Positions 18,275 through 46,000 of a DNA stretch of 64,000 bases are shown here, piece after piece. The stretch covers positions 2,048,001-2,112,000 of the forward strand of contig CBDBCY010000004.1 of the NCBI GenBank assembly GCA_965203555.1, read 5' to 3'. A program made the position numbers and the translations under genes. Position 1 is the first letter of the stretch; each line of letters begins with the position of its first letter. The notes under the pieces are model-generated. The model ran no database searches and was not told where the DNA came from. It saw nothing but the letters and a program-made list of their open reading frames with translations. The DNA is from Acidimicrobiia bacterium (GTDB taxonomy: Bacteria; Actinomycetota; Acidimicrobiia; Spongiisociales; ZC4RG35).

Positions 18275-18283
18275 CTAGCCTGG

Positions 18284-28306: not shown

Positions 28307-28362
28307 GGCAGTCGTTCCTTTCGTCATCGGGATGTAGCGTGCTATTAAAGTTAGGCCGACCG

Positions 28363-32023: not shown

Positions 32024-32606
32024 TCAGCGGCGCATCACCTTGGGAGCGACGGTGCCGAACTCCGACGGAAGTTTCAACACGGTCACGCCGCATTCCCGCA
32101 TGATCTGGACTTTCTCCGCCGCCGACTCCCCGACGGTCGACACGATGGCCCCGGCGTGGCCCATCTTACGACCCTTGGGGGCGGTGAGGCCTGCGATGTA
32201 GGCCACCACCGGTTTGTGCATGTGGTCCCGGGCGTACAGGGCCGGCTTGGGCCTCCTGCGGCCCTCCGATTTCGCCCACCATCACCACCGCTTCGGTCTG
32301 GTTGTCAAGCTCGAACAGCTTCAGGTGGTCGAGGAACGAGCTGCCATTAATGGGATCGCCGCCGATGCCGACACTGGTGCTGACCCCGATGCCGACCGCT
32401 TTGAGCTGAGATGCCGCCTCGTAGCCGAGCGTTCCCGACCGGCTGATGATTCCGATCGAGCCCCGCCGGTAGATGTGTCCGGGCATGATGCCCATCATGG
32501 CCCGGCCCGGGCTGATCACGCCGGCGCCGTTGGGGCCGATCAGGCGCATCCGGCGAGCGTGCCGGTAGCGGCGAAGGTAACGCTTGACTTTCAGCATGTC
32601 CTGGAT
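32024..32606 (-). pseudogene. mtkB: 5'-truncated, frameshifted succinyl-CoA-synthetase-alpha-like gene, closest in motifs to malate thiokinase small subunit
   Basis: [51 protein letters not shown]; +1 frameshift near 32244; then [22 protein letters not shown]; N-terminal CoA-binding region missing. Confidence 0.75.
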
Positions 32607-32729
32607 GAGGTCGGCGGCGGCCTGGGAGCCTTCGCCGGTCGGTGCTGGCGGATCGGCTTGATGGGCCACACGGCTCGGCTTGACAACGTGTCGCGGGTGC
32701 TGGCCGCCTTGGACGAAGTGCTGGTGTAG
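32607..32729 (+). pseudogene. 3' fragment of a class V alanine/serine-glyoxylate aminotransferase
   Basis: [21 protein letters not shown]...NV..VL.AL.E.L* matches the AGT/PucG C-terminus; rest of gene absent. Confidence 0.65.
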
Positions 32730-32825: not shown

Positions 32826-33683
32826 TCAGCGTTCCGTCTTGTACGGATTGAGGAGGTCGGTGAGGGTGTCGCCGAGGAGGGTGAAGACCAGCACCGTTAT
32901 GAATATGGCGCTTCCCGCTCCCAACGCCAGGTAGGGATTGGTGGAGACCAGGGTCTTGCCGGCCAGCAGCATGGCGCCCCAGGACGGGGCGGGAGGCTGA
33001 GCGCCCAGACCCAGGAAACTGAGGGCGGCTTCGGTTAGCACCGCGGTGGCGAAGGTGAGAGTGAACTGCACCAGGATGATCGAGGTCAGGTTGGGCAGGA
33101 GCGACCGCTGCATCAGATATACATGACTGGCGCCCAAGGCTCTGCCCGCGGTGATGAATTCGCTCTCTTTGAGGGAGAGGGCCATTCCTCGCACCAGACG
33201 GGCGAAGCGGGGGATCTGGACTATCCCGATGGCAATGATGGTATTGCGCAGATTGGTTCCCAGCACCGCCACCATGGCCATGGCCAGGATGATGGGGGGA
33301 AACGCCAGCAAGCCGTCGGTGGTGCGCATCATTATGGTGTCGGTGAGCTTCCCGAAGTACCCGCTGACCACGCCCATCGGCACCCCGAACACCACCGCGA
33401 TGGCGGTGGAGGCAAAGCCCACGTACAGGGAGACTCGCGACCCGTGGATGAGACGACTGAAGATGTCCCTTCCTATCGAGTCGGTGCCAAGCCAGAACTG
33501 TGCGGTGGGCAACTCGAAGGGATAGGCGACCACTTCGGTGGCGCCGTAAGGCGCCAGGAGATCGGCGAACAGCGCGGTCAGCACCAGTAGCGCCACCATG
33601 CTGAGCGTGAAGAGGTGGAGGGGATTGCGGACGATCCTCCTCCAGATCTTGCGTCTCTCCGAGAACTGTGCGGCAGATGTCAT
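32826..33683 (-). CDS. Peptide/nickel ABC permease (DppC/OppC-like)
   Basis: LGTD.IGRDIFSRL.HG.RVSL, PRFARLVRG, EAALSFLGLG.QPP.PSWG. Confidence 0.93.
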   Translation of the reverse strand: MTSAAQFSERRKIWRRIVRNPLHLFTLSMVALLVLTALFADLLAPYGATEVVAYPFELPTAQFWLGTDSIGRDIFSRLIHGSRVSLYVGFASTAIAVVFGVPMGVVSGYFGKLTDTIMMRTTDGLLAFPPIILAMAMVAVLGTNLRNTIIAIGIVQIPRFARLVRGMALSLKESEFITAGRALGASHVYLMQRSLLPNLTSIILVQFTLTFATAVLTEAALSFLGLGAQPPAPSWGAMLLAGKTLVSTNPYLALGAGSAIFITVLVFTLLGDTLTDLLNPYKTER

Positions 33684-33705
33684 ATCCGGGTTGGTCCTTG
33701 TGCGC

Positions 33706-34653
33706 TCATGAACGGGCGATCCTCGGGTCGAGCCAGGAATAGGTCAGGTCCACCAGCAGGTTGACGATCACGAAGGTGGCGGCCGAGACCAGCACGGCTA
33801 TCTGAACCACGTCGAACGCCCGGGTGAGGATGGACTGGATCATAAGCCATCCCAACCCCGGCCAAATGAAGATCTGCTCGATAACCACCATCCCTCCCAC
33901 CAGCAATCCGAAGTTGACGCCCACCTCGGTGACCAGCGGGATGGCGGCGTTCCGGAAGGCATGCCAGTAGTTGACCCGACGCTCCGTCAGGCCCTTGGCG
34001 CGGGCGGTGCGCACGTAGTCGGCGCTGAGCACTTCCAACATCCCTGCTCTCATGAACCGGGTCAGCCGGGCGGCGGTCACCGACGCGATGGTGAGCACCG
34101 GCATTATCAGTTGACTGAGGTGCTTGACGGGATCTTCTCCAAAGGGAACGTACCCCCCGGGAGGTAGAAGGGGGAACACTTCCGCCAGCAGGATGAGCAA
34201 GCCGATTCCCATCACATAGGTGGGCATGCTGAACCCCAGGGTGGTGAACACCCGGGCGATGTGGTCCACCCATGTCCCTTCCCGGATGGCCGAGATCATC
34301 CCCAGGGGCACGGCCACAATCACGGCCAGGAGTATGGAGAGAGCAGCCAGTTCCAAGGTTCTCCCCAAGGCGGGAAAGACCAGGCTGGACACCTCGGCGT
34401 AGCCGTGAGTAATCGACTTCCCGAAGTCGCCGCGGGCCAGGTTCCCCATCCAGCGCAGGTATTGGACGTGGGTGGGGTCGTTGAGGCCCAACTCCTCTCG
34501 GAGTGCTTCGTAGTCCTCCGGTGAGGCGTCGAGGCCGAGTGTCATGGCGGCGGGGTCGCCTGGGACCAGCCGGAAGATCACGAACACGGCGGTCGAGACG
34601 ATCCACATGACCAGGATCCCGTGCAACAGGCGGCGGGCAACGTATCTGGTCAT
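33706..34653 (-). CDS. Peptide/nickel ABC permease (DppB/OppB-like)
   Basis: PGDPA, GDFG.S, DYVRTARAKGL, HAFRNA, IEQIF.WPGLG; ATG 34653. Confidence 0.93.
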   Translation of the reverse strand: MTRYVARRLLHGILVMWIVSTAVFVIFRLVPGDPAAMTLGLDASPEDYEALREELGLNDPTHVQYLRWMGNLARGDFGKSITHGYAEVSSLVFPALGRTLELAALSILLAVIVAVPLGMISAIREGTWVDHIARVFTTLGFSMPTYVMGIGLLILLAEVFPLLPPGGYVPFGEDPVKHLSQLIMPVLTIASVTAARLTRFMRAGMLEVLSADYVRTARAKGLTERRVNYWHAFRNAAIPLVTEVGVNFGLLVGGMVVIEQIFIWPGLGWLMIQSILTRAFDVVQIAVLVSAATFVIVNLLVDLTYSWLDPRIARS

Positions 34654-35660
34654 GATCGAGCGCTCCAGTGGCTTTCGGCGCCCGGGTAATGGCAGGCCAC
34701 CAAGCTGTCGGAGACAGGCGCCAATGGGGGGTCCTGTTCGACGCAGAGTTGGTCGCCTCGCCAGCACCGGGTTCTGAACCGGCAGCCGGAGGGCGGATCG
34801 AGGGGATTGGGCAGGTCGCCGGTGAGAATTATCCGTTCCCGGGTCTGTCGACCCTGGGCGGCGGAGATGTCGGGGATCGCCGACAGGAGGGCGATCGTGT
34901 AGGGATGCTGGGGGGAGTTGAAAACCGCGTCCCGGGGGCCTTCTTCCACGATCCGGCCGAGGTACATGACCGCCACGCGATCGGAGACCTGGCCCACCAC
35001 CGACAGATCGTGGGCGATGAACAGATACGCCAGGCCGAGTTCGGTTTGCAGGTCTTCCAGCAAGTTGAGAATCTGGGCCTGGATGGAGACGTCCAGCGCC
35101 GACACCGGTTCGTCCAGCACCAGAAGAGAGGGCTCCAGGGCCAGGGCTCGGGCGATGGCGATCCGCTGTCGCTGACCGCCGGAGAACTCGTGGGGGAACC
35201 GGCGCAGGGAGTCGGGTGGCAACTGGACCAGGGACAGCAGTTCCGGGATCTTTTTGCTGGCCACCTTTTTGGAGATGCCATGGATCCGGAAAGGCTCGTA
35301 CAGGATCTGGCGGACTCTGAACCGGGGATTGAGGGAGGCGTAGGGATCCTGGAAGACGATCTGCATCTCCTGGCGCAGGGGACGCATCTGTTGGTGATCG
35401 AAGTGGGTGATGTCCTCTCCCGCGAAACTCACAGTTCCGGCAGAGGGTTCCAGCAGTCGGATGATGGTCCTTCCCAGGGTGGACTTGCCGCACCCCGACT
35501 CACCCACCAGCCCCAGAGTTTCACCAGGCTTGATGGACAGGGTGACGTCCTCCACCGCCACCAGGGTGGTGGCCTTCTGGGCGCCGCTGCGTCGGATGTG
35601 GTAACTGGTGGTGATGTCCCGGATGTCGAGAATCGGCTTCCGGGCGGCGGCGGTGTTCAT
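34650..35660 (-). CDS. Peptide ABC ATP-binding protein (DppF/OppF-like)
   Basis: GESGCGKST, FQDPYASLNP, FSGGQRQR, DEPVSALD, HPYT, GC.F.TRC. Confidence 0.94.
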   Translation of the reverse strand: MNTAAARKPILDIRDITTSYHIRRSGAQKATTLVAVEDVTLSIKPGETLGLVGESGCGKSTLGRTIIRLLEPSAGTVSFAGEDITHFDHQQMRPLRQEMQIVFQDPYASLNPRFRVRQILYEPFRIHGISKKVASKKIPELLSLVQLPPDSLRRFPHEFSGGQRQRIAIARALALEPSLLVLDEPVSALDVSIQAQILNLLEDLQTELGLAYLFIAHDLSVVGQVSDRVAVMYLGRIVEEGPRDAVFNSPQHPYTIALLSAIPDISAAQGRQTRERIILTGDLPNPLDPPSGCRFRTRCWRGDQLCVEQDPPLAPVSDSLVACHYPGAESHWSARS

Positions 35661-36667
35661 GTTGCTCTCCCGGTGAGCCAGGATGCCGCCTCCTCGGTGA
35701 AGTGACAGGCTGCCTGGTGTCGGGTTCCCACTTCCAGCAGCCGCGGGGAGTCGGATCGGCAGACCGAACGCTCCCCTCCGACGGCGCACCGGGGATGGAA
35801 GGGGCATCCCGGGGGGACGTTGGCCATATCGGGAGGCTGGCCGGGAATGGAGTAGAGTTTCGTCCTCTTTTGCGTGATCGAAGGAATGGAAGCCAGCAGT
35901 CCGATCGTGTAGGGGTGCCGTGGCCGGGAGAAGATGTCGCCGATGCGCCCTTCCTCCACGATCCGACCGGCGTACATCACTATCACCCGGTCGGCAATCT
36001 GGGAGACCAGCCCCAGGTCGTGGGTGATCAGGATGGAAGCCGCCCCCGTCTCCTGGCGGGCTGCCTTGAGGGTTTCGATCACCTGCGCCTGGATGGTCAC
36101 GTCCAGGGCGGTGGTGGGCTCGTCGGCGATCAGCAGCTTGGGCCGGTTGGCCATGGCCATGGCGATCATGGCCCGCTGGCGCATACCGCCCGAGTACTCG
36201 TGGGGAAACTGGTTGTAGCGCCGTTCCGGCTGCGGGATCCCCACCATGTCCAGCAATTCGATGCCGCGCCGGCGGTGATTGGACCTGGAATCGGAAGGAT
36301 TGTGGGTCCACAGAGCTTCCCGCAGTTGCTCCCCCACCTTGATAACCGGGTTCAAAGAGGTCATGGGATCCTGGAACACCATGGAGATCTCCTGTCCCCG
36401 GATCGCGCGGAGGGCTTCCGTGGACAGGGGCAACAAGTCCTGCCCCTCGAAGAGAGCCCTTCCACCGGTTATCTCCCCGGGGGGTTTGGGGATGAGTCCC
36501 AGGATGCTCAGCACCGTCACCGTCTTGCCGGATCCGGACTCGCCGACTATTCCGAGGGTCTCCCCGGTGTTGAGGGAGAAACTCACGCCATTGACGGCAT
36601 TGATCAACTGATCATGGGTGTTGAACCGGACTGAAAGGTTCTCGACGGTTAGCAACGGAACTGGCAT
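35657..36667 (-). CDS. Peptide ABC ATP-binding protein (DppD/OppD-like)
   Basis: GESGSGKT, FQDPMTSLNP, SGGMRQR, DEPTTALDVT, HPYT, GCPFHPRC. Confidence 0.94.
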   Translation of the reverse strand: MPVPLLTVENLSVRFNTHDQLINAVNGVSFSLNTGETLGIVGESGSGKTVTVLSILGLIPKPPGEITGGRALFEGQDLLPLSTEALRAIRGQEISMVFQDPMTSLNPVIKVGEQLREALWTHNPSDSRSNHRRRGIELLDMVGIPQPERRYNQFPHEYSGGMRQRAMIAMAMANRPKLLIADEPTTALDVTIQAQVIETLKAARQETGAASILITHDLGLVSQIADRVIVMYAGRIVEEGRIGDIFSRPRHPYTIGLLASIPSITQKRTKLYSIPGQPPDMANVPPGCPFHPRCAVGGERSVCRSDSPRLLEVGTRHQAACHFTEEAASWLTGRAT

Positions 36668-36713
36668 CGGGATTGAAAGATACCTTGCTGGGCGAGGTTT
36701 GGGCGGTAGGAGA

Positions 36714-36750
36714 GGAGGGGCGGGGACGCCGAAGCGCCCCCGTTCTCCTC
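36714..36750 (-). terminator. Hairpin after the binding-protein gene
   Basis: GAGGAGGGCGGGGACGC ... GCGCCCCCGTTCTCCTC imperfect inverted repeat. Confidence 0.45.
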
Positions 36751-36768
36751 AGTTTGCGTTAGCGGAAC

Positions 36769-38655
36769 CTAGTTCTCTGACAGGTAGACGTCGGTGAGGT
36801 ACAGGGTTCCTTGAGTGTGCGAAATGAAGCCGTGGACATTGGGACTGTGGGGTATGGGGTTCAGTCGCCCTCCGAGGACGATCTGGGGTTGTTCCTCCAT
36901 GGCCCACTCCTGCAACTGGTATATGGCTTCCTTGTACTCGATGTTGGAGGCGATGGATCGGGCACTGGCCAGCAACTCGAAGAACTCGGGCTTGTGGTCG
37001 ATCCATCCCATGGTCTCAACGAAGAGCTTGTTGTAGGGATGGTTCAGCAAGTCGTACTCGTCCGGCTTGGGCACCATTGCGCACTGGGCCAGGTCGTACA
37101 GGCCAAGCTGGTCAGGATCATTCGTATGCGTGGGGAGCGTTCTGTCAACATAGGTCGCCACATCCATGATGTTCAGCTCGATCTGGATGTTCAAGCCGGT
37201 TTTCAGTTGCTCCTGAACGGCCTCGGCCAGCCAGGTGTGCTCGATGTTAGTAGCGCAAACTATCATCTCCCCGCCGTCGAAGCCGTCGGCATACCCCGCA
37301 CTCGCGAGAAGGGCCTTCGCTCCCTCGACGTCAGGAGCGTTGTATGAGGCCGCGTCCGGGTTGAAGAACTGCGCGTTGCTCTCCATGGGGTTGGAAATAA
37401 CCTGCATGTGGCCCAGCAGGGTTCGTTGCAGCGCAGGGCGATCAATCGCCATGCTGACCGCCTGGCGCACCAGGGGATTCGACCAGATGTCCCTGCGGGT
37501 GTTGACGTGGAAGTGATACAGGCCGGTGTTCCCCGATGGAGGACTGGCGATTACCATGCCCGCTTCGCTGAGGGCTGCCAACTCGGGCAACGGACCCTGG
37601 GCCAGCATGTGGACCTCGCCGGATCGAAGCTGAAGCGACTGGACGTTCTCATCAGGAACGGTGACGTACTCGATCCTGTCCAGGTAAGCCTCGCCCCAGT
37701 AGTCGGGGTTGCGCTCTATGACAACCTTTTGGTTTTTCTCCCAGGACACGAACCTGTACGGACCGGTGCCGGTAGGCGTCGCGTTCAAGTCGATGTCCTC
37801 GGCAGGCGATATATACACGTCGATCAGCGTGCTGTGCAATATGCGATCCGGCTCTGAGAGTCGAACCTCCACGGTGAGGTCGCCAGTCGCTACGACTTCC
37901 GCGACTCGAGTCAGCAAGGAAGCTGTCCTTCCCGCCCCGGGCTCCTGCGCGCGTTCGATTGAGCGAACAACGTCAACGGCGTCCAGATCCGAGCCGTCGT
38001 GAAAGACCACGTCCGGACGAATATGGAATTCATGCGTCAGACCGTCTTCTGAGACATTCCAGTGAGTGGCCAGCAAAGGCCTGATCTCGTAGGTGTTCAG
38101 GTCGAACTCAACCAGGGTTTCATACATGTTGGTGACGACGTTGCGGCCAGCTGTGGATCCGTACCGGTTGGGATGCATTTGGTTTGGATCGGCCGTTTGG
38201 GCGATGACGAGAGTCCCACCACGGGGAATCATCTCCTCTTCCATCGCCATGGTGGCTTCTTCCAACTCCTGTTCGGCCATGGCGGCTGCCTCTTCGGCTT
38301 CGGCTACCATCGCTTCGGCTTCGGCTGCCTTAGCTTCGGCTTCGGCTGCCTTAGCTTCGGCTTCGGCCAATGCTTCCATGGCTGCTTCGTCCCCTTCTTC
38401 GGCGGCCATCTTCGTGTCTTCCAGTTCCGCCATGGCCTCATCCAGGGCAGCTTGCGCCTCGGCAGCTTCCGCGGCCGCGGCCGCGGCTTCGGCCGAGGCG
38501 GTTTCGGCTGCCGCCTGTGCCTCGGCTGCCTGTGCTTCGGCTGCGGCGCGGGCTGCTGCTTCGGCTTCGGCTGCGGCCTCGGCTTCCGAAGTGTCCTCCC
38601 CACAGGCCGTTGCAACCAGGGCCAGAATGGCCAGCATCGCGAGTAGTTTCTTCAT
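36769..38655 (-). CDS. Family 5 (DppA/OppA) substrate-binding lipoprotein with a long Ala/Glu-rich N-terminal stalk
   Basis: MKKLL..LVATAC lipobox, ~125-aa EAEAAA region, YETLV, PLLA..W, FHDGS, GTGPY, VRQA...AIDR; SD AAAGGAG. Confidence 0.92.
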   Translation of the reverse strand: MKKLLAMLAILALVATACGEDTSEAEAAAEAEAAARAAAEAQAAEAQAAAETASAEAAAAAAEAAEAQAALDEAMAELEDTKMAAEEGDEAAMEALAEAEAKAAEAEAKAAEAEAMVAEAEEAAAMAEQELEEATMAMEEEMIPRGGTLVIAQTADPNQMHPNRYGSTAGRNVVTNMYETLVEFDLNTYEIRPLLATHWNVSEDGLTHEFHIRPDVVFHDGSDLDAVDVVRSIERAQEPGAGRTASLLTRVAEVVATGDLTVEVRLSEPDRILHSTLIDVYISPAEDIDLNATPTGTGPYRFVSWEKNQKVVIERNPDYWGEAYLDRIEYVTVPDENVQSLQLRSGEVHMLAQGPLPELAALSEAGMVIASPPSGNTGLYHFHVNTRRDIWSNPLVRQAVSMAIDRPALQRTLLGHMQVISNPMESNAQFFNPDAASYNAPDVEGAKALLASAGYADGFDGGEMIVCATNIEHTWLAEAVQEQLKTGLNIQIELNIMDVATYVDRTLPTHTNDPDQLGLYDLAQCAMVPKPDEYDLLNHPYNKLFVETMGWIDHKPEFFELLASARSIASNIEYKEAIYQLQEWAMEEQPQIVLGGRLNPIPHSPNVHGFISHTQGTLYLTDVYLSEN

Positions 38656-38793
38656 CTTGATCGCTCCTTTGTTGTCGGACATGTCCATCAGTATCGCGAC
38701 TGTAATAGCTAGACTAGAACTCTTCAATAGTCACAACCATCTGAAAAGTAAAAGAATTCTTTGCAAAACCGTTAATAGCCCTGCCCCTTTGCC

Positions 38794-38804
38794 AGGTAAG
38801 ACCT
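38794..38804. promoter_or_regulatory. Possible FadR/GntR-type operator in the divergent promoter region
   Basis: AGGT-AAG-ACCT palindrome, resembling GGT-N3-ACC sites, in an AT-rich 180-bp gap. Confidence 0.35.
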
Positions 38805-38838
38805 ATAGAAGATGTTTAAGATGGGTAACGGCAAGCCT

Positions 38839-39177
38839 ATGTCTGACTTTCTGAAGCGCCCCCGACTTCCCGCTGGCATTGACGGGTCTCGGCTTGATCT
38901 GTGGGAGGAGTTCCGGCGACGGCCCTTCGGCCAGCATTCACCTGATCTGCAGGCGCTGTTGGACTACATGCGGGGTGGTCCGATCACTGGCAAGTTTTTC
39001 CTGAAGCTGACCGGCCCTCATTCGGAGTGGACCCTGGCGCGGTTCAGCACCACCTACCCATTGACCACCGAAACTCTGCCCGAGCATGTCTTCACCACCA
39101 TCGAAGACGCCGAGTATTTTGTGTTCCGCCGCCGCTGGGAGGAGATGTTCGGCGCCGACCCGGGAGCGGAGTCGTGA
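38839..39177 (+). CDS. dmfA1: N,N-dimethylformamidase small (alpha) subunit-like protein
   Basis: EEF...P.GQHS..L..LL.Y.R....GK+, F.T..DAE..VF..R pattern; GTGA-coupled to the large subunit. Confidence 0.7.
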   Translation: MSDFLKRPRLPAGIDGSRLDLWEEFRRRPFGQHSPDLQALLDYMRGGPITGKFFLKLTGPHSEWTLARFSTTYPLTTETLPEHVFTTIEDAEYFVFRRRWEEMFGADPGAES

Positions 39178-41402
39178 GCGTCAAGGCCGCGGTCATGGGA
39201 TATGCGGACCGCCAGAGCCTGCGGCCGGGAGAGCGCATCGAGTTCAAGGTGAGCGCGTTGGGCCCGGAGACCTACCGGGCGGACATCGTGCGGTTGATCG
39301 CTCCGGAAGTGGGTCTGGGCGACGACTGCCCGGACTTCTGCGAGATTGAACTCCACACCGAGGTTTGCGGTGACTATCCCACGGAGTGGCAGCCCATGCA
39401 TCCCGGTTCGGCGGTGCGGGTCCCGGGGGGTCTTCCCCTGGATGAGGGAGTGACCCTCAGCGCCAACATCTTTCCCACCTTGATCGAGGCGGGTCGGCAG
39501 GCCATCCTGGGAACCTACAGTCCCACCGACGATTCGGGCCTCAGCCTGATCCTGGAGGACGGGGCTCTCGCTCTGGTGGTGGGAAGCGGGGGGTCCACGG
39601 CCATCGTGACCAGTTCGATTACCCCGGTGGAGCACCGTTGGACGGCGGTGGCCGTCACCTATGAGCCTGACGCCGGCACGGTGGAATTCCATGCCCGGGG
39701 AATGGAGACCCATCGCCTCGAATCTTCACTGTCATCCCGGGAGAGGATGGAAGGGGCGGCGCCCGGAGCATCGGGAGGAAGCCACTTCCACATAGGGGCC
39801 GCCCGAGCCGTGGATGACCGCGGCGTGGAGCACACCGCGCTCTGTTTCAACGGCCGGGTCGAAAGGCCCCGGGTCTACGCCCGGTTGCTGGACCATGAAG
39901 ACATCTCCCGTCTGTCGGCGGTGACCGGTCCGGCGCCGGTTGCAGGAGCGTATGCAGACTGGGACCTCTCCATCGGTATCGACACCGATTCGGTCACCGA
40001 CGTGTCGGGCAACGGCCGTCACGGAGAGACGGTAAACCTGCCCACCCGCGCGGTGGGAGGCTCCAACTGGGCGGGTGAGACCGACAACTGGCAACTACGG
40101 ACCGAGCAGTACGGCGCCATCCACTTCCACGACGACGACGTCGATGACGCCCGGTGGCGGACCAGTTTCGCCCTGGTGGTACCCGAGGACTGGAAGAGCG
40201 GATGCTATGCGGCCCGCCTTCGGGCCGACGACGCCGAGTTCTACGTGCCCTTCGTGGTGCGGCCGACTCCCGGCAAGGAGGCCGATGCGGTGTTGCTGCT
40301 GTCCACCGCCACCTACGGCGCCTACGCCAACCTGAGGCTTCGGGTCGTCTTCCCATGGAACGAGTTGATCCACGGTCGCCTGACGGTGCTGGACGACACC
40401 GATCTGCTGATGCTCCGGTTTCCCGAGATCGGCTCCTCCACCTACGACAGCCACACCGACGGGAGCACCGTTGTCTATGCCTCGATGCGGCGCCCGGTCA
40501 CCAATTTCCGCCCCAAGGGCCGCATCTACAAGTTCTGCCAGGACATGCTGCTGGTCTCCTGGCTCGAGGAGGACGGATACGACTTCGACGTGATCACCGA
40601 CGAGGACGTGCACCGCGAGGGCCTGTCTGCCCTGGAGCCCTATCGGGTGGTCATCACCAGTTCCCATCCCGAGTACTTCAGCACCCGGATGTTCGACGCC
40701 ACCGAGGACCATGTCAGGCAGGGAGGACGGATGATGTACCTGGGAGGCAACGGCTGGTACTGGGTGATCGGTTATCACCCCACCCGCTCGGGAATAGTGG
40801 AGGTCCGCCGGCCCGACGCTCCCCGGCTGTGGGCGGCCGACGTCAGCCAGGGTCATCTCTCGTTCACCGGAGAGCGAGCCGGTACGTGGTCATGGGCGGG
40901 CCGTCCCCCCGAGACCTTCCTGGGAGTGTGTTTCATCACCCAGGGCTTCGACGAGTGTTCCTATTACCGACGCACCGAGGCCTCCGACGATGAGCGCGCT
41001 GCCTTCATTTTCGAGGGCGTCGACGACGAGCTCATCGGAGACTTCGGCCTGTTGATGGGAGGAGCGGCAGGATATGAGATCGACCGGGCGGACTACCTTA
41101 TGGGGACCCCGCGGCATGCGCTGGTTTTGGCGTCGTCGGAGGGCCATTCCAACCTCTACGACTTGATGGTCACCTCACTGGTCGATACTTTGCCGCCCAC
41201 CAATCCCGATGATCCCGACCGGATCCGTGCCGACATAGTGTTCTACGAGACCCCCGGTGGCGGTGCGGTGTTCTCGGTGGGCTCGATTGCCTGGTCGGGA
41301 AGCCTCAGCGCCGCACGGTACGACAACAACGTGGCGGCGGTCAGCCGTAACGTCCTCAACCGCTTCCTGGATCCCGAGCCCTTCCAGATGCCCGCCGAAT
41401 GA
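39174..41402 (+). CDS. dmfA2: N,N-dimethylformamidase large (beta) subunit-like protein
   Basis: GY.DR.S..PGE.I.F.VS, LamG-like insert, YGAIHFHDDD, TY.AYAN, STYD.H.DGS, HPEY, YLGGNG.YW, AAG.EIDR, GAVFS.GSI. Confidence 0.88.
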   Translation: MSVKAAVMGYADRQSLRPGERIEFKVSALGPETYRADIVRLIAPEVGLGDDCPDFCEIELHTEVCGDYPTEWQPMHPGSAVRVPGGLPLDEGVTLSANIFPTLIEAGRQAILGTYSPTDDSGLSLILEDGALALVVGSGGSTAIVTSSITPVEHRWTAVAVTYEPDAGTVEFHARGMETHRLESSLSSRERMEGAAPGASGGSHFHIGAARAVDDRGVEHTALCFNGRVERPRVYARLLDHEDISRLSAVTGPAPVAGAYADWDLSIGIDTDSVTDVSGNGRHGETVNLPTRAVGGSNWAGETDNWQLRTEQYGAIHFHDDDVDDARWRTSFALVVPEDWKSGCYAARLRADDAEFYVPFVVRPTPGKEADAVLLLSTATYGAYANLRLRVVFPWNELIHGRLTVLDDTDLLMLRFPEIGSSTYDSHTDGSTVVYASMRRPVTNFRPKGRIYKFCQDMLLVSWLEEDGYDFDVITDEDVHREGLSALEPYRVVITSSHPEYFSTRMFDATEDHVRQGGRMMYLGGNGWYWVIGYHPTRSGIVEVRRPDAPRLWAADVSQGHLSFTGERAGTWSWAGRPPETFLGVCFITQGFDECSYYRRTEASDDERAAFIFEGVDDELIGDFGLLMGGAAGYEIDRADYLMGTPRHALVLASSEGHSNLYDLMVTSLVDTLPPTNPDDPDRIRADIVFYETPGGGAVFSVGSIAWSGSLSAARYDNNVAAVSRNVLNRFLDPEPFQMPAE

Positions 41403-41448
41403 TCTCGGGCTTCGGATCCGAAGAAGCCGCCGATGGGTGGGGACAGGC

Positions 41449-42222
41449 ATGACCGCACCGGACTGGTCGCTGGGCGCCGGTCTCCGGAACCAGGCGGTGC
41501 TGGTGACCGGAGCGGCGAGCGGCATCGGAAAGGCGACCGCCCGGACCATGGCGGCCCTGGGCGCCAGGGTGGCGGCATTGGACGTTCAGGAGACGGTGCG
41601 GGAAGTGGTGGGGGACTTGGAGGACCCCGGCCGGCACCTGCCGGTGGTCTACGATCTGGCTGACAGCGGGTCGATGCCGTCGTTGGTGGCCGACATCGAG
41701 GCGCGGCTGGGCCCGCTGTGGGCGCTGGCTCATGTGGCGGCCTACCTGCGGCGCAAGGAGTTGGGCGATGTGACCGAAGAGGACTGGGACGCTCAGCTGG
41801 ATGTGAACCTGAAGGGTTCATTCTTTCTCAACAAGGCGGTTGGAGAGGCGATGATCGCCACCGGCAGAGGGGGGCGCATCATCAACTTCACGTCCGGAGC
41901 TTGGCTGAGCGGACCGGTGCATGGCAGCCACATCTACGTGGCCAGCAAGGGGGGTGTGGTCTCCATGACCCGGGGGTTTGCCCGGGCCTACGGGCCACAT
42001 GACATTCTGGTGAACTGCGTGTCGCCCGGGCAGATAGACACCCCCATGCAGCACGTCGACAATATCCCCGAAATCGTGGCGGCCGGAATCGAGCAATGCC
42101 CACTGGGGCGGATGGGACAACCCGAGGAGTTGGCCAGGGTGGTGGCCTTCCTGGCTTCCGAACACGCCAGTTTCGTCAGTGGCGCCACCATCAACGTGAG
42201 CGGCGCGCTGACGATGTACTAG
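41449..42222 (+). CDS. SDR-family oxidoreductase (paralogue of 5714-6493)
   Basis: TGAASGIG, S...YVASK, NCVSPG. Confidence 0.92.
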   Translation: MTAPDWSLGAGLRNQAVLVTGAASGIGKATARTMAALGARVAALDVQETVREVVGDLEDPGRHLPVVYDLADSGSMPSLVADIEARLGPLWALAHVAAYLRRKELGDVTEEDWDAQLDVNLKGSFFLNKAVGEAMIATGRGGRIINFTSGAWLSGPVHGSHIYVASKGGVVSMTRGFARAYGPHDILVNCVSPGQIDTPMQHVDNIPEIVAAGIEQCPLGRMGQPEELARVVAFLASEHASFVSGATINVSGALTMY

Positions 42223-42234
42223 AGGGGTGGATCA

Positions 42235-43146
42235 CTGAACACCGTTCAAACCGTTCTGGGACCCGTTTCTCCGGACGAGTTGGGTGTGACCCTGCCCCAC
42301 GAGCATGTCTTCCTGGACCTCTACGAGATAACCATGAACTCCCATCTGATCCTCTGCGATCCCGAGGTTGCCCGGTACGAGTTGGGTTTCTTCAAGGAGT
42401 GCGGTGGGGGCACCATCGTCGATCAGACGGTGCACGGGCTGGGGCCGGATCCGGAGGCGCTCCGGGAGGTGGCCCGGGACGTGGGCATAAACATCATTGC
42501 GGGTACGGGCTTTTACTGGGAGAAGTTCCACCCGCCCTGGCTGAGGGACATGACCGACCGGGACATCGTGGCAATGCTGGTGAAAGACCTGACGGGAGGG
42601 TTCTACGGGACCGACATCCGGGCGGGGATCCTGGGCGAGATCGGGACTCACCATCGAAGGATCTCGGCCGCCGAGGAACGGGTGATCAGAGCTTGTGCGG
42701 TCGCCCAGCGGGAGACGAGCGTTCCCATCTCCACCCACGCGCTTTTCACCCGCATCGGCATGGAGCAGGTGCGACTGTTCGAAGATGCCGGGGCGAACCT
42801 CGACAAGTTGGTGATCGGCCACGTCGACACCACACCTGACGTGGACTACCACATCGAGCTTCTCCGGAGGGGAGTCTGGATCGCCTACGACGCCATCGGC
42901 CAGCTTGACAAGCAGACGGACGAGAGAAGGGCGGATGCCATAGTCCGGCTGATCGGCGCCGGGTACCGGGACCGGATTCTGCTGTCCACCGATGTGGGAA
43001 AGAGAGGGGCTATGAGATCGTACGGCGGAACAGGGTATGATCATGTGATCAACATCTTTCTGCCACTGCTACGGGAACGGGGCATCGAGGAAGAAGACTT
43101 GGACGCGCTCACCGTGGACAATCCCCGCCGCCTGTTCACCGGATAG
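42235..43146 (+). CDS. Phosphotriesterase-family (Php/PTE-like) hydrolase; probable CTG start
   Basis: VQTVLGP..PDELG.TL.HEH, TIVD.T, GTGFY, GEIG, STH, IGH.D, ILLSTD, DNP.R; the conserved N-terminus lies upstream of TTG 42280. Confidence 0.88.
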   Translation: MNTVQTVLGPVSPDELGVTLPHEHVFLDLYEITMNSHLILCDPEVARYELGFFKECGGGTIVDQTVHGLGPDPEALREVARDVGINIIAGTGFYWEKFHPPWLRDMTDRDIVAMLVKDLTGGFYGTDIRAGILGEIGTHHRRISAAEERVIRACAVAQRETSVPISTHALFTRIGMEQVRLFEDAGANLDKLVIGHVDTTPDVDYHIELLRRGVWIAYDAIGQLDKQTDERRADAIVRLIGAGYRDRILLSTDVGKRGAMRSYGGTGYDHVINIFLPLLRERGIEEEDLDALTVDNPRRLFTG

Positions 43147-43149
43147 CAG

Positions 43150-44262
43150 ATGGACGGGATTCAGGACAGAAGCTATGAGGAGAGGAGTCGAGACTCTGTG
43201 AGCGGCGCAGATCGGCACCGCCCGGTAGAGGTGGTCCACTTCGGCCTGGGAACGGTGGGTCGGGCGGCCTTGCGTCTGTGCCGGACCCGGGAGTGGATTC
43301 GTTCGGTAGGGGCCGTGATAGGCGGGAAGTCTTCGGTGCGGGAAAGAATCGAGGCGGGAGAGGTCCCCGTAGATCTGCCTCTTTCGACCGATGCCGACTA
43401 TTTGTTGGACCAACTGCGACCGGAGGTGGCTTTGATCGCCACCCGCTCTCCCGTGGCGGAGGTGAAAGCCGACATCCTGAGGTGCCTGCATCGGGGGGTG
43501 AGTGTCGTCACCTCGAGCGAGGAACTGTACTTTCCCGACGTCACCGACCCGTCGGCGACCAGAGAGATCGAAGCAGCCTGCCGCGCCGGGGGAGCGGCGG
43601 TGGTGGCCACCGGCATCAATCCCGGGTTCGTGTTCGATGTTCTCCCGGTGGTGATCGCCGGCTCTTCCTGGGACGTCCAGCGGTTGGCGGTGACCCGTGC
43701 GCTCGATTGCTCGGTGTTCGGGCGGACCATCCATCGCTCGCTGGGGGTGGGGTACAGTCCGGCCGGATTCGAGGAGGCCCGCCGGACAGGAGTCATCCGC
43801 GGTCACATCGGGTTCGAGGAGAGCGCCCGGGTCATCGCCAGGGTGATGGGCAGGGAACTCGACCGTTTCGAGGAGAATGTCCAGCCATTGATCGCCGAGC
43901 GACCCTATCAACTCGCCGAGTATGAGATCTCCCCCGGGGAGACGGCCGGGGTGGTTCAGGATGCGACCGGTTGGGTCGGGGAGCGTCCCTGGCTCCGTTT
44001 CGACCTGTCCCTTCACGTGGATCCGAAGTCGGTGGGTATTCAGACCCGTGATCACATCCGGATAGAGGGCGAGAACACCCTGGACGTAACCATCCAGCCC
44101 GGAACCACGTCGATTCTCACCACCTCGGCCCTGTTGGTCAACAGCATCCCGGCGGTGTTGTCCGCGCCCCCGGGCCTCTATACCGCCGCCGACCTCCTAC
44201 CCACCGCACCCTGGTTGGGCGCCAGCCCTCCTCCGGGTTTACGGAGACGAACCCAAGGCTGA
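43150..44262 (+). CDS. DapB-like / 2,4-diaminopentanoate-dehydrogenase / native amine dehydrogenase family protein
   Basis: FGLGTVG, G.SVVTSSEEL.FP, ATGINPGF..D, LGVG.....F, GHIGF.ES, T.A..VN.IP.V..APPG; alternative start GTG 43198. Confidence 0.8.
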   Translation: MDGIQDRSYEERSRDSVSGADRHRPVEVVHFGLGTVGRAALRLCRTREWIRSVGAVIGGKSSVRERIEAGEVPVDLPLSTDADYLLDQLRPEVALIATRSPVAEVKADILRCLHRGVSVVTSSEELYFPDVTDPSATREIEAACRAGGAAVVATGINPGFVFDVLPVVIAGSSWDVQRLAVTRALDCSVFGRTIHRSLGVGYSPAGFEEARRTGVIRGHIGFEESARVIARVMGRELDRFEENVQPLIAERPYQLAEYEISPGETAGVVQDATGWVGERPWLRFDLSLHVDPKSVGIQTRDHIRIEGENTLDVTIQPGTTSILTTSALLVNSIPAVLSAPPGLYTAADLLPTAPWLGASPPPGLRRRTQG

Positions 44263-44732
44263 CCGGCCCGGTAGTCGTGTTTTCCGGTGGTGGGGTCTGA
44301 GCGGCGCTTTCCGCTGCTTCCCAACAATCTGGCAAAAGAACCCGTGCAGGATGGTTGACTCTGTCACAGTGACGGATCATGTTGTTAGGGCCAAGCACCG
44401 AGGCGGTCCGCTCCGGCGTCGTTCGGACCGCAAGAAGGGATCACAGAGTCTGACGAAGCCCGGTCCGGGCTGTCCGAAAACCGTTCAACCCAAGGACAGG
44501 TGGAGGTGGGGGTGGGGACCCGAAGGGGGAAATTCGCGACAAATCGATCTGGTCGGTTTCACACCTTTTCGGCCAGTGTCCCGGTCTGTACCGGCCACGG
44601 ATTCGACCCCACGCTGCCATTGGTGGGTTCGGGAACTGAGGTGTGTTCATACTATGTGGGGTGTCGCGGATGAGGTGGACGCTGCGAAAGTTTTAGTGTT
44701 TGTTTTCACAACTTAGTGATATGCGGGGTGTT

Positions 44733-44755
44733 TTGTCACACCCCCTGTGCATACT
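44733..44755 (+). promoter_or_regulatory. Putative RecA-NDp/PafBC-like promoter giving a leaderless transcript
   Basis: TTGTCAC-N10-CATACT ending 6 nt before ATG 44762. Confidence 0.45.
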
Positions 44756-44761
44756 GTACAC

Positions 44762-46000
44762 ATGAAACACATGAACACACAACCCGCAGGCACAACAGCA
44801 GCCACCAATCGGGTGCGTCTGCTGGCACCCTCCCTGCCGGCGGCCGGGGCTACGTCCGAGCAGTTACGGCAGCGTATACAGTCCACCATCCGCGTCCAGA
44901 ACCAGGCCGCCGCGGTCCGCGCCGAGGCGGTGTCGGAGTTGCGCCGCCGACAGGGGGCGGAGAAGGTGGAGACGATATTGCGAGAAGACGGGCTGTTGGG
45001 CCGTCGGAAGGCCCGAACGGAGGTGGAGACCGCCAAAGAATTGGAGGAACTGCCCAAGACGAGGGAGGGTTTCCAAAAGGGAGAGATCTCTGCTGACAAC
45101 GCGCGTATCCTGGCGGGCGCTAACCAGAGGGGAACCATCAACGAGGACGAGTTGTTGGACGGTGCCCGTTCCCAGTCTCCTGACAAGTTCGCGGCCATGG
45201 TCCGCAAACACGAACAGGCCCGTGCCCAAGATGATGGTGTGTCGGAGTTGGAGCATCAGCGTTCCCGGCGGTTCGCGAAGATCACCACTGACCAGGATGA
45301 CGGGATGACTGTTCTTTATGGGAGGTTCGACCCGGTCACGGGTGCTCGGGTCGAAACGGCGGTGTCTCACATGATGAACCAACTATGGCACAAAGAAGAC
45401 CCTCGGGATCGGGCTACTGCGGGGCAGCGGATGGCCGACGCTATAGCCAAGCTCCTTACTCGGGAAGGAGAGGATGGTGGTTCCCAAGGCGTGCGGTTGT
45501 TGTTGATCGCCGATTACGACGCGGTCAGCCAACAGTTGGGCAGCCCTCGCTTGGAGAACGGAACCCCCCTGCCCGCCCGTACCCTGCGCCAGTTGGCCTG
45601 CGACGCGCAGGTCCTCCCGGCCATCTTTTCGGGTTCGTCGGTGCCGTTGGATTTGGGACGGGCCCGGCGGACGGCCAGCGGTTCCCAACGGGCCGCGCTG
45701 GTCGCCCGCGACAAACACTGTGTGGGTTGCGGCGCCAAGGCCTCCTGGTGTCAGGCCCACCACATTGTCCACTGGGCCGATCAGGGTTCCACGAACCTGG
45801 ACAACATGTGTCTTCTGTGCAGCAGATGCCACCACAAAGTCCACGACAACGGGTGGACAGTTCACAAAACCCCCACCGGAACATACACCCTCCGCCGCCC
45901 ACCAACCGACCGGCCGCCACGGCACCGTACGAACCGCTACCGCCGCCGATCCACACGCCGCCGATCCACGCGCCGCCGCCCCATTAAACAACGGAAATGA
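44762..46000 (+). CDS. DUF222 + HNH endonuclease (REP13E12-like)
   Basis: G.FDP..G, QR.ADA, LACDA...PA, LDLGR..R.A...QR.AL..RD..CVGC...WCQAHHI.HW...G.T.L.N..LLC..CH..VH; Arg-rich tail. Confidence 0.9.
   Translation: MKHMNTQPAGTTAATNRVRLLAPSLPAAGATSEQLRQRIQSTIRVQNQAAAVRAEAVSELRRRQGAEKVETILREDGLLGRRKARTEVETAKELEELPKTREGFQKGEISADNARILAGANQRGTINEDELLDGARSQSPDKFAAMVRKHEQARAQDDGVSELEHQRSRRFAKITTDQDDGMTVLYGRFDPVTGARVETAVSHMMNQLWHKEDPRDRATAGQRMADAIAKLLTREGEDGGSQGVRLLLIADYDAVSQQLGSPRLENGTPLPARTLRQLACDAQVLPAIFSGSSVPLDLGRARRTASGSQRAALVARDKHCVGCGAKASWCQAHHIVHWADQGSTNLDNMCLLCSRCHHKVHDNGWTVHKTPTGTYTLRRPPTDRPPRHRTNRYRRRSTRRRSTRRRPIKQRK
45941..45978 (+). repeat. 15-bp tandem repeat in the HNH C-terminal tail (RRRST)
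   Basis: CGCCGCCGATCCAC(A/G) x2 plus a partial copy. Confidence 0.7.

Follow-up and report, generated by a model that had tools for sequence, protein, structure and literature searches.

A dimethylformamidase-family amidase in an import and catabolism gene cluster of an Acidimicrobiia bacterium, probably directed at a natural sugar-like amide

Gene content of the locus

The host is a member of the Acidimicrobiia whose genus occurs in sponge, coral, and marine metagenomes. Its chromosome was analyzed over a window of 64 kb (the whole stretch of DNA considered here), in which a complete family-5 ABC importer is divergent from an operon encoding a two-subunit amidase of the dimethylformamidase (DMFase) family, a short-chain dehydrogenase/reductase (SDR), a PTE-family hydrolase, and a protein related to 2,4-diaminopentanoate dehydrogenase (DAPDH) and native amine dehydrogenases (AmDHs). 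All genes named in the original prediction were present, and the limits that it gave to this core cluster, 32826 and 44262, are true gene ends. It had missed the enolase-superfamily (MR_MLE) gene at 29879-31045 and the sugar-type genes nearby, and the functional unit probably reaches left from 32826 to 27446. The features are as follows.

27446-28477, minus strand: xylose-isomerase-like TIM-barrel protein (AP_endonuc_2, Pfam 9.8e-23), probable outer cluster member
28339-29781, plus strand: sugar-isomerase-like protein (L-arabinose isomerase C-terminal domain, Pfam 1.2e-7)
29879-31045, plus strand: enolase-superfamily (MR_MLE) protein, acid-sugar-dehydratase-like (MR_MLE_C 7.5e-49, MR_MLE_N)
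32826-33683, minus strand: ABC permease, DppC/OppC type (BPD_transp_1 8e-25, OppC_N; NCBIfam GsiD-like 3.6e-79)
33706-34653, minus strand: ABC permease, DppB/OppB type (NCBIfam Opp2B 2.9e-90; start mapped)
34650-35660, minus strand: ABC ATPase, DppF/OppF type (ABC_tran and oligo_HPY; NF008453, 405.5 bits)
35657-36667, minus strand: ABC ATPase, DppD/OppD type (ABC_tran and oligo_HPY; NF007010, 373 bits)
36769-38655, minus strand: family-5 substrate-binding lipoprotein, SBP (SBP_bac_5 1.5e-76)
38656-38811, no strand: A+T-richer divergent intergenic region, presumed to control both operons
38812-39177, plus strand: DMFase-family small subunit (6lvb_B match; tblastn homologues in subfamily loci)
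39174-41402, plus strand: DMFase-family large subunit, Fe 2-Tyr-1-Glu amidohydrolase (DMFA2_C 2.4e-92; 6lvb_A)
41449-42222, plus strand: SDR (adh_short_C2 3e-53; below NCBIfam equivalog cutoffs)
42280-43146, plus strand: PTE-family binuclear-metal hydrolase (PF02126 4e-69; 1bf6 4.5e-51, 9efa 1.7e-43)
43150-44262, plus strand: DAPDH/native AmDH-family protein (DAP_DH_C 1e-38; 6g1m 9e-48), its true start possibly near 43198

The SBP carries an Ala/Glu-rich linker of about 110 residues after its lipobox. Its best relatives in the PDB are 6ofq (155 bits), 5u4o, and AgaA 6hlx (127 bits), which are not sugar binders; this counts against a sugar-like substrate, as does the importer type, whose annotations concern peptide, nickel, and opine uptake but not that of sugars. 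Scanning 38656-38811 for consensus promoters returned no site. RNA-library contigs from three studies contained near-identical pieces of the SBP (970, 1158, and 529 bases), permease, large-subunit, SDR, AmDH, and MR_MLE genes, a weak hint of cluster expression, since DNA carry-over is possible. No enzyme of the cluster reached an equivalog cutoff in the NCBIfam profile search.

On the left flank, the gene at 27446-28477 is syntenic in two relatives (L003 and L006, 85-86% identity), and a 35% homologue of its product is encoded beside the MR_MLE gene of locus L107. The next gene, which is syntenic in the same two relatives, probably starts downstream of 28477; its product has weak similarity to sulfoquinovose isomerase (NF048012, 48 bits, far below the cutoff). 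The MR_MLE gene belongs to neither operon: it runs convergently to the importer operon, from which a sucD fragment and an inserted CBS gene separate it. The best NCBIfam and PDB matches of its product were dehydratase-like entries for gluconate, galactonate, and rhamnonate, none of them reaching an equivalog cutoff, and acid-sugar dehydratase models scored far above those for N-acyl-amino-acid racemase or OSBS.

The amidase and its separation from dimethylformamidase

The large subunit aligned with that of Paracoccus DMFase (6lvb_A) across residues 5-737 (4.2e-136), and its GTG start overlaps the stop of the small ORF. As originally claimed, its motifs map onto catalytic positions of the Paracoccus enzyme: AYAN onto Y399, TYDSH (TYD.H) onto Y440, HPEY onto H519 and E521, and GYEIDR (G.EID) onto E657. 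N547 is likewise kept in the alignment, and 6/6 named catalytic residues are retained. The roles of these residues are those given in the available text of the structure paper, in which Y399, Y440, and E521 are the Fe ligands (PMC7686228). With the ligands, H519, N547, and E657 aligned and a small subunit present, the amidase is predicted to be catalytically competent.

The small ORF matched 6lvb_B at E=0.0015 in a single-sequence search, and a 15-sequence profile built from it and its relatives had 6lvb_B as its sole match in the PDB (9.3e-14), which confirmed, at the level of sequence, its identity as the small subunit. In 22 of the 24 subfamily loci, tblastn places a homologue upstream of the large-subunit gene; relatives begin at the internal Met equivalent to 38839.

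The large subunit shares 36.5% identity with P. aminophilus DmfA2. In a FastTree tree of 156 rows, it fell into a 24-member clade with a support of 100, DmfA2 being outside, and a 16-row version gave an SH-aLRT of 100. By these trees, the window amidase is no DMFase orthologue but part of a separate, well-supported subfamily. The clade has nine fixed positions whose residues occur in less than 10% of the 132 other rows, including W311S, W473Y, and F693D; for a tenth column, with Thr at N424, the share among the other rows is 10%. F693 is the sole signature position documented as a pocket residue, the others being known from sequence columns, and in the available text of the structure paper it restricts larger amides (PMC7686228).

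Recurrent neighbors and the candidate substrate

The neighbors were conserved with the amidase. Of the 13 loci in the genus-level group, all 13 carry the SBP and SDR genes, 11 the AmDH-like gene, and 10 the PTE gene, and more deeply branching lineages within the amidase subfamily contain parts of the cluster. The PTE gene is absent from L003, L009, and L011 and frameshifted in L004; the AmDH-like gene is absent from L009 and L011, which retain the amidase, importer, and SDR. Thus, the PTE and AmDH genes are not obligatory, being dispensable in some close relatives. In a congener (L185), the SDR-PTE-AmDH trio is tandemly duplicated as a block. The nearest homologues of the SDR (57%) and AmDH (52%) outside the genus occur together in a sugar/cyclitol-type operon (G182), which runs monosaccharide-type ABC, SDR, VOC, GFO_IDH_MocA, AmDH, GFO_IDH_MocA, XylTIM.

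Loci were then compared across the family, with the proviso that they were picked by similarity to the window amidase and that many are kin: a MR_MLE homologue lies beside the amidase in 15/24 subfamily loci versus 2/129 others, an AmDH-like gene in 14/24 versus 0/129, a family-5 SBP gene in 15/24 versus 1/129, a PTE gene in 10/24 versus 3/129, and an SDR gene in 21/24 versus 16/129. By lineage (eight in the subfamily), MR_MLE and SDR each recur in five, and AmDH-like and family-5 importer/SBP genes each in three. MR_MLE is the partner conserved most widely across the amidase subfamily; in L015 its gene and the small-subunit gene share 4 bases. Some lineages additionally harbor LacI regulators, lactonases, GFO/IDH/MocA, or xylose-isomerase-like genes. 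Locus L014 reads LacI, SBP5 ABC, MR_MLE, small subunit, large subunit, MR_MLE, DAP_DH_C, RidA, and L107/L108 read MR_MLE, SDR, SBP5 ABC, small subunit, large subunit, DAP_DH_C, P450, RhaM, GFO_IDH_MocA, XylTIM, MR_MLE (57% identical to that of the window), LacI. An SMP-30 lactonase and an SDR are encoded near the amidase in L013, and an HpcH aldolase in L094. The AmDH-like neighbors in L014 and L107 are 29-33% identical to the window protein and may not be isofunctional with it. Among 401 genomes of the class, 11 had a DMFase-like hit, as did 7 of the 8 with an AmDH-like hit, these genomes being kin that represent about four independent lineages.

The MR_MLE gene and the sugar-type neighbors, the most widely conserved partners, favor a sugar-like substrate over a generic amine or lactam. 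We lean, by a little, toward a chromosomal cluster with an accessory catabolic role, serving an imported polyhydroxylated amine that bears an N-acyl group and is of amino-sugar, sugar-acid, amino-aldonic acid, or cyclitol-like type; within this range, the most likely substrate class is that of amino sugars, amino-aldonic acids, or aminocyclitols with an N-acyl group of formyl or acetyl type. We infer a shared pathway in which steps and enzymes would be matched as follows. The family-5 (Opp/Dpp/Nik/opine-type) importer would take in a polar natural amide; the two-subunit Fe(III) 2-Tyr-1-Glu amidohydrolase, with Asp for the pocket-narrowing Phe693, would split the amide bond; the DAPDH/native-AmDH-like enzyme would oxidatively deaminate the released amine; and the SDR, PTE-family hydrolase, and nearby acid-sugar-dehydratase-like MR_MLE enzyme would handle the carbon skeleton. 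The observation in the original prediction is confirmed and its interpretation partly supported: the enzyme is unlikely to be one for DMF, it lies in a cluster for import and catabolism, and its neighbors, whose lack of conservation would have told against the original prediction, are conserved with it.

An unlikely alternative that retains some credit, and the one closest to the original wording, takes the substrate to be a small peptide-like amide or a non-alpha amino acid with an N-acyl group (e.g. an N-acetylated beta- or gamma-amino acid or N-acyl diamino acid). It would be deacylated in the manner of beta-phenylalanine acylase and deaminated to a keto acid by the DAPDH-like enzyme, a step known from ornithine fermentation, and the SDR would act on the keto or hydroxy acid. 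The peptide/opine type of the importer suits it, as do the characterized non-DMF homologue 8huy, an N-acetyl-beta-amino-acid acylase, the amino-acid ABC, D-amino-acid dehydrogenase, and racemase genes adjoining Burkholderia homologues, and the hydrolysis of N-acetyl-beta-alanine and N-acetyltaurine ascribed, in the available description, to PTER-type enzymes. The AmDH-like protein is nearest the AmDH4/2,4-DAPDH structures and retains an Arg aligned with AmDH4 Arg161, which presumably binds a carboxylate. For native AmDHs, the available text of one study takes a conserved Arg at P9 to suggest a carboxylated substrate (PMC11164908). Against this, the recurrent partners of the subfamily are of sugar type (MR-subgroup dehydratase-like enolases, LacI, RhaM, GFO/IDH/MocA, XylTIM, lactonases, and a KDG-type aldolase), acid-sugar dehydratases are a far better match to the MR_MLE protein than the N-acyl-amino-acid racemase or OSBS models, and the scanned window ORFs contain no ornithine-fermentation genes.

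We regard as rather improbable that there is no single pathway, the unit being the amidase and importer (perhaps with the SDR) while PTE, AmDH, and MR_MLE co-travel by descent in a narrow group. The losses in L003, L009, and L011 agree with this, as do the restriction of full synteny to relatives at 83-97% identity, as descent predicts, and the position of the MR_MLE gene beyond the importer operon. However, AmDH-like or MR_MLE genes lie directly beside amidases of 44-55% identity (L014, L015/L093/L094, L017, L107/L108) and hardly ever or never outside the subfamily, SDR-PTE-AmDH was duplicated as a block, and L009 and L011 lack MR_MLE, PTE, and AmDH together, on both flanks. A genuine hydrolase of DMF, N-methylformamide, or formamide, acting on small C1 amides, is highly improbable. 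Its two-subunit architecture, full set of named catalytic residues, and Tyr656 before the catalytic Glu, common to the window and Paracoccus enzymes and rare elsewhere, are those of a DMFase, but it belongs to a different clade with Asp in place of Phe693, DMF needs no dedicated ATP-driven importer, the 64-kb window showed no methylamine-type genes, and the family comprises 1055 clusters (50% identity, E<=1e-30), far more than the known DMF degraders. The target of the cluster is probably a natural sugar-like amide and not the industrial solvent DMF, in line with the non-DMF context originally proposed.

Comparison with known systems

Non-phosphorylative sugar oxidation proceeds by a sugar 1-dehydrogenase, a lactonase, an enolase-superfamily aldonate dehydratase, and a KD-aldolase, and inositol/rhizopine-type clusters combine GFO/IDH/MocA with an IolE-like TIM barrel. 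SDR, PTE or SMP-30 lactonase, MR_MLE, HpcH aldolase, LacI, RhaM, GFO_IDH_MocA, and AP_endonuc_2 recur around the amidase subfamily, a likeness at the enzyme-family level, not orthology to characterized pathway enzymes. To our knowledge, a DMFase-family amidase is part of neither route, nor is an NAD(P)-dependent amine dehydrogenase.

The AmDH-like protein shares the DAP_DH_C domain with DAPDH/AmDH4 (6G1M, 9e-48), and its aligned Glu-Glu pair and Arg are invariant among seven aligned homologues. In contrast, it falls below the Ord equivalog cutoff (NF040740, 222 versus 400 bits), has no ornithine-fermentation neighbors, and carries Leu at the positions aligned with AmDH4 Asn163 and His264, which we take to be residues with functional roles. 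For native AmDH group G1, the available text of PMC11164908 describes native substrates as unknown and genomic context as uninformative.

The PTE protein is nearest E. coli PHP (1BF6) and PTER (9EFA), its top PDB matches, with which its HxH, Glu, His, His, and Asp metal-ligand positions align; lactonase-type PTEs scored lower. It falls below the PHP equivalog cutoff (199.5 versus 486 bits), and PHP is an orphan with no known substrate. PTER is, in the available description, an amidase of N-acetyltaurine and N-acetyl-beta-alanine, not a lactonase. The lactone hydrolysis originally assigned to the PTE protein is insecure because the family also holds N-acetyl-amide hydrolases, and either a lactone or an N-acyl amide may be its substrate.

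DmfA1/DmfA2 (Paracoccus sp. DMF, 6LVB; P. aminophilus pAMI2) resemble the window amidase in their small and large subunits, their overlapping small stop and large start, and a full-length alignment (E=4e-136) with the six catalytic residues kept. The window amidase differs by its clade and by F693D and eight more subfamily-fixed changes, and its locus is chromosomal with an ABC importer and dehydrogenases, whereas that of DmfA2 holds only LuxR-dmfA1-dmfA2, a cassette of two genes under LuxR control that is flanked by IS elements on an 18.5-kb plasmid. N-acetyl-(R)-beta-phenylalanine acylase (8HUY/8I59/8I5A) shares the fold family of the large subunit (E=7e-119 over residues 6-732), although its match to the window amidase is weaker than that of DMFase. 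Its action on an N-acetyl-beta-amino acid fits an amino-acid substrate and counts against a sugar-like one. The original statement that natural substrates of homologues are mostly unknown overlooked this enzyme, which shows that the DMFase family hydrolyses natural-type N-acetyl amides.

Organization of the amidase cluster and its flanks

The source genome (3.4 Mb, 4 contigs) is 95% complete. The nearest public relatives of the window are Acidimicrobiia MAGs, and the stretch is present in DNA runs labelled as sponge, coral, and marine metagenomes. The cluster comprises an importer operon and a divergent plus-strand run, parted by a 156-base intergenic region, together with a probable extension on the left flank:

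27446-29781, left flank, ahead of the importer operon: sugar-isomerase-like gene and xylose-isomerase-like TIM-barrel gene
29879-31045: enolase-superfamily gene (MR_MLE)
32826-38655, minus strand: complete family-5 ABC importer (SBP_bac_5 substrate-binding lipoprotein [SBP], two BPD_transp_1 permeases, and two ATPases with oligo_HPY)
38812-39177, plus strand: small open reading frame (ORF) of 121 codons, small subunit of the dimethylformamidase (DMFase) family
39174-41402, plus strand: large-subunit gene of 742 codons, its GTG start overlapping the stop of the small ORF (GTGA)
41449-42222, plus strand: short-chain dehydrogenase (SDR) gene, third in the run
42280-43146, plus strand: PTE-family gene, after the SDR gene
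43150-44262, plus strand: DAP_DH_C gene (AmDH-like), last of the run

The domain content of 32826-38655 is in all respects that of an Opp/Dpp-type (family 5) importer, and the successive gaps downstream of the large-subunit gene are 46, 57, and 3 bases. The genes named in the original prediction, from 32826 to 44262, are all present. Scanning 38400-45000 for consensus promoters and terminators was uninformative: no site was detected within the divergent intergenic region, and terminator-like sites were fewer than in shuffled sequences.

Contig pieces from four RNA-library runs, belonging to three studies, matched the genes for the SBP (pieces as long as 1158 bases), the large subunit, the SDR, the AmDH-like protein, and MR_MLE as well as the last permease gene, mostly with 93-100% identity to the window (91% to 100% for the MR_MLE pieces). 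These contigs provide only a hint of expression since DNA carry-over is not excludable and contigs give no levels. The stretch 42304-42924 of the PTE gene was without an RNA-library contig, an observation of a type that cannot show absence. The depth over the ATPase genes was set aside as it consisted largely of partial matches of ABC genes from other organisms.

The lipobox of the SBP is followed by an Ala/Glu-rich, probably helical spacer of ~110 residues (38262-38598, residues ~20-130), which is missing from the 522-residue orthologue of the related locus L014. The length of this spacer differs between strains, as indicated by RNA-library contigs in which 6 and 9 bases are deleted (38231-38240 and 38558). 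On the 3' side of the AmDH-like gene, 44351-46000 harbors a family-less 121-codon ORF followed by a DUF222-HNH endonuclease gene. Neither gene was found in any related locus, and the segment therefore looks like a strain-specific insertion; the X17 RNA-library contigs cover 44788-46000 deeply. A 757-codon ORF at 25070-27343, directly to the left of the extended cluster, encodes CotH kinase and lamin-tail domains. A separate sugar-type cluster (GFO_IDH_MocA, family-1 SBP, two permeases, MalK-type ATPase, and aldo/keto reductase) is located upstream at 14647-23097, in a region rich in importer-linked catabolic modules.

Relationship of the amidase to dimethylformamidase

The large subunit matched PF20254 (DMFA2_C) with a score of 310.7 bits (gathering cutoff of 27), and its residues 5-737 aligned with residues 4-759 of 775 of the Paracoccus DMFase (6LVB_A) over the full length and the three domains (E=4.2e-136). 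The N-acetyl-(R)-beta-phenylalanine acylase was a weaker match (7e-119). The equivalents of the 2-Tyr-1-Glu iron ligands (Y399, Y440, and E521) and of the catalytic residues (H519, N547, and E657) are all kept, these roles being those assigned in PMC7686228. The motifs singled out in the original prediction coincide in this alignment with Y399, Y440, H519/E521, and E657, N547 being kept besides. The small ORF alone matched chain B of 6lvb with an E value of 0.0015, and a profile built from 15 small ORFs had chain B of the DMFase structures as its sole PDB match (9.3e-14). Judged by these matches, the small ORF is a real DMFase-family small subunit, encoded directly upstream.

Five homologues of 837-891 residues (P0004, P0027, P0033, P0088, and P0149), in which the large-subunit match begins at residue 115-150, may represent either natural fusions of the two subunits or gene calls that were merged. 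The genome also contains, ~185 kb away, a second DMFase-like large-subunit gene (L078, G000:C4:2271092-2276284; 34% identity), which is flanked by genes for a GFO_IDH_MocA protein and a BPD_transp_2 permease.

The family comprises 1055 representatives at 50% identity (E<=1e-30), the nearest of which is only 53% identical to the window large subunit. Identity to DmfA2 of P. aminophilus plasmid pAMI2 is 36.5%. The latter enzyme is encoded on an 18.5-kb plasmid by a LuxR-dmfA1-dmfA2 locus that is bordered by IS elements and has no transporter, unlike the cluster described here. Phylogenetic trees were built with IQ-TREE (75 large subunits) and FastTree (156 large subunits). The window large subunit belonged to a clade of 16 members in the former (SH-aLRT of 100) and of 24 members in the latter (support of 100), DmfA2 being outside both. 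Thus, no orthology with an experimentally linked DMFase was found (separate clade, identity as above), and the amidase is, by its placement in the trees, not a DMFase orthologue.

Thirteen dereplicated clade members were compared with 132 other aligned sequences. At the sequence level, nine positions are fixed in the clade, with residues that less than 10% of the others share; W311S, W473Y, E474K, P476C, and F693D are among them. Thr at N424, the tenth column of the list, reaches 10% among the others. Asp occupies the F693 column in 11 of the 12 non-gapped subfamily representatives, and Phe is the commonest letter in the 132 other rows (27 rows). Phe693 of the narrow aromatic pocket, a feature of N,N-dimethylformamidase proper (EC 3.5.1.56), is replaced by Asp in the window enzyme. 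In PMC7686228, F693, which is supplied by the neighbouring large subunit, is held responsible for the exclusion of larger amides. The accessible portions of the main text and supplement of that structure paper name no other DMFase pocket residue. Literature searches found no paper on "beta-phenylalanine acylase" and none joining dimethylformamidase and sponge, and, among the dimethylformamidase publications listed from 2019 onward, none has a natural substrate as its topic, as far as their titles and abstract openings tell.

Recurrence of the neighbours and properties of the partner enzymes

Conservation of the neighbourhood was analyzed in a genus-level group of 13 loci including that of the window (83-97% identity) and in the 24-member clade, which comprises ~8 lineages of Pfam-annotated loci.

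Table. Neighbours of the amidase genes (genus-level loci; loci of the clade; other loci).
Family-5 SBP (importer): 13/13; 15/24; 1/129
Small subunit: 13/13 genus-level loci
SDR: 13/13; 21/24; 16/129
AmDH-like: 11/13 (missing from L009 and L011); 14/24; 0/129
PTE: 10/13 (missing from L003, L009, and L011; frameshifted in L004); 10/24; 3/129
MR_MLE: 15/24 loci of the clade; 2/129 other loci

As the loci include kin and were picked by similarity, counts were also made by lineage (n=8): MR_MLE and the SDR were each found in 5, and the AmDH-like protein and the family-5 SBP each in 3. The three PTE cases outside the clade (L059, L061, and L062) are Acidimicrobiia MAGs, one named Candidatus Spongiisocius, in which a PTE-SDR pair adjoins a DMFase-like gene of another clade. 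The gene orders in the deep lineages were as follows.

L014: LacI, CoA-transferase, family-5 ABC, MR_MLE, small, large, MR_MLE, DAP_DH_C, RidA
L015/L093/L094: MR_MLE-small-large, SDR convergent (4-base overlap between MR_MLE and the small gene in L015; HpcH aldolase and fumarase-type hydratase upstream in L094)
L017: large, MR_MLE, LacI
L107/L108: MR_MLE, SDR, family-5 ABC, small, large, DAP_DH_C, P450, RhaM-like, GFO_IDH_MocA, ceramidase-like, xylose-isomerase-like TIM barrel, second MR_MLE (57% identical to that of the window), LacI
L013/L095: SMP-30 lactonase, 3-hydroxyisobutyrate-dehydrogenase-like, SDR, small, large
L097: large, then SDR

Within the genus-level group, the enolase-superfamily gene of the other flank is likewise missing from L009 and L011. 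The SDR-PTE-AmDH trio is duplicated in tandem behind the amidase genes of one congener (L185, G369:C2:745000-764900), the second AmDH copy being 71-72% identical and containing one TAA stop. Relatives have the MR_MLE gene directly next to the last permease gene. In the window, a CBS-domain gene (31093-31953), shared only with L001 among the relatives compared, and a 167-codon ORF (32166-32669) are inserted between them. Of the 291 positions in the model for succinate-CoA ligase alpha, the latter ORF matches only 102-218, and it is likely a pseudogene fragment of sucD. The left flank of the window (MR_MLE, sugar-isomerase-like, and TIM-barrel genes) fits the neighbour pattern of the subfamily. 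The amidase neighbours recur both in the genus and, in part, in deeper lineages of the clade, which speaks in favor of the original prediction.

Two separate lineages encode, a few genes from the amidase, a protein with a neutral/alkaline ceramidase N-terminal domain, i.e. another type of N-acyl amidase (L003:15279-16736 and L107:15752-17263). Nine Dehalococcoidia loci (L038, L042, L045, L048, L050, L051, L056, L058, and L060) belong to another DMFase-like clade, in which no small subunit was detected and which has conserved neighbours of its own; most contain class-III aminotransferase and CoA-transferase III genes, and most also a D-2-hydroxyacid dehydrogenase gene.

The AmDH-like protein belongs to the native amine dehydrogenase family (133 bits against PF19328, DAP_DH_C) and is closest in the PDB to the AmDH4/2,4-DAPDH structures. 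Its Glu-Glu pair aligns with residues 102/103 of AmDH4, residue 102 being the catalytic Glu (P3), and the pair and an Arg are invariant in 7 homologues. The score of 222 bits against the 2,4-diaminopentanoate dehydrogenase equivalog (Ord, NF040740) falls short of the cutoff (400), and the window ORFs scanned with Pfam included no gene of ornithine fermentation. Matches to the AmDH-like protein were present in 8 genomes of a 401-genome sample of the class, 7 of them among the 11 genomes with a DMFase-like match (~4 independent lineages, allowing for kinship). Outside the genus, the nearest AmDH (52%) and the nearest SDR (57%) sit together in genome G182, in a plus-strand run of monosaccharide-type ABC permease, ATPase, SDR, VOC, GFO_IDH_MocA, AmDH, GFO_IDH_MocA, and xylose-isomerase-like TIM-barrel genes. 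This run is a carbohydrate- or cyclitol-type operon from which the amidase is absent. Phylum-wide, only AmDH matches of <=35% identity were obtained, hence no further contexts, and those of the 32-35% matches in the class (L183 and L184) look unrelated.

The PTE protein scored 233.6 bits against PF02126, and its HxH, E, H, H, and D positions, those of the binuclear-metal ligands, align with those of 1bf6. It remains below the cutoff of the E. coli PHP equivalog (NF007373; 199.5 versus 486 bits), and the PDB structures closest to it are those of E. coli PHP, for which no substrate is known, and of PTER, which is described as an N-acetyltaurine and N-acetyl-beta-alanine amidohydrolase. Based on these relatives, the PTE protein may cleave a lactone or a second amide, and the lactone hydrolysis included in the original prediction is not secure. 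This protein is the least certain part of the cluster. The MR_MLE protein contains both N and C domains; its best models are acid-sugar dehydratases, all scoring below the equivalog cutoffs (150.8 versus 750; 149.5 versus 311), and its best PDB matches are uncharacterised MR-subgroup structures.

Candidate substrates and significance

On balance, we lean toward reading the cluster as an accessory pathway whose substrate would be an N-acylated compound resembling an amino sugar, amino-aldonate, or aminocyclitol, the substrate class being held with less confidence than the pathway as a whole. The partner enzymes and the LacI, RhaM, lactonase, and aldolase neighbours point to a polyhydroxylated, probably carboxylated amine, imported here in its N-acyl form. 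The comparative evidence supports a larger natural amide and functionally linked neighbours, as originally proposed; it does not support the specific order of steps or the lactone step.

The main rival is an N-acyl amino-acid substrate. A scheme in which MR_MLE would be an N-acyl-amino-acid racemase partnering an acylase was rejected on the basis of the scores of dehydratase models (113-151 bits) versus racemase/OSBS models (29-55 bits) and of best PDB matches in the MR subgroup. Quenching of acyl-homoserine lactones by an acylase and a PTE lactonase was discarded in view of the dedicated importer and of a PTE protein closer to PHP/PTER than to lactonase-type PTEs.

DMF is a synthetic compound, and native amine dehydrogenases are sought-after biocatalysts. 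Members of the DMFase family are routinely read as "DMF degraders": in the preprint 10.1101/2021.03.18.435917, a DMFase subunit gene is reported in 924 of 20,762 complete genomes, and these genomes and 28 MAGs are treated as 952 putative degraders. According to PMC11164908, ornithine fermentation is the sole setting in which natural substrates of native amine dehydrogenases are known, and a synteny analysis offered no clue to others, which makes the recurrent amidase-AmDH association a useful lead. The recurrent, subfamily-specific context ties the DMFase and native-AmDH families to each other and to two further enzymes, a PHP-like orphan hydrolase and an enolase-superfamily member yet to be assigned. 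It narrows the candidates to a few testable substrate classes and provides an SBP usable for ligand fishing. If confirmed, the accessory-pathway reading would set right an annotation in wide use and reveal a new catabolic logic from amide to ketone.

A bolder proposal, which we regard as improbable, is that the cluster marks a route, so far undescribed, by which marine symbionts would process N-acylated forms of amino sugars, amino-aldonic acids, or aminocyclitols. It would provide the first physiological role for a non-Ord native-AmDH branch and for a DMFase subfamily, and perhaps for PHP-like PTE proteins. Deacylation would be catalyzed by a DMFase-type Fe(Tyr2Glu) amidase, a step normally performed by Zn deacetylases, and deamination by a native NAD(P)-dependent amine dehydrogenase, a step normally performed by PLP enzymes or lyases.
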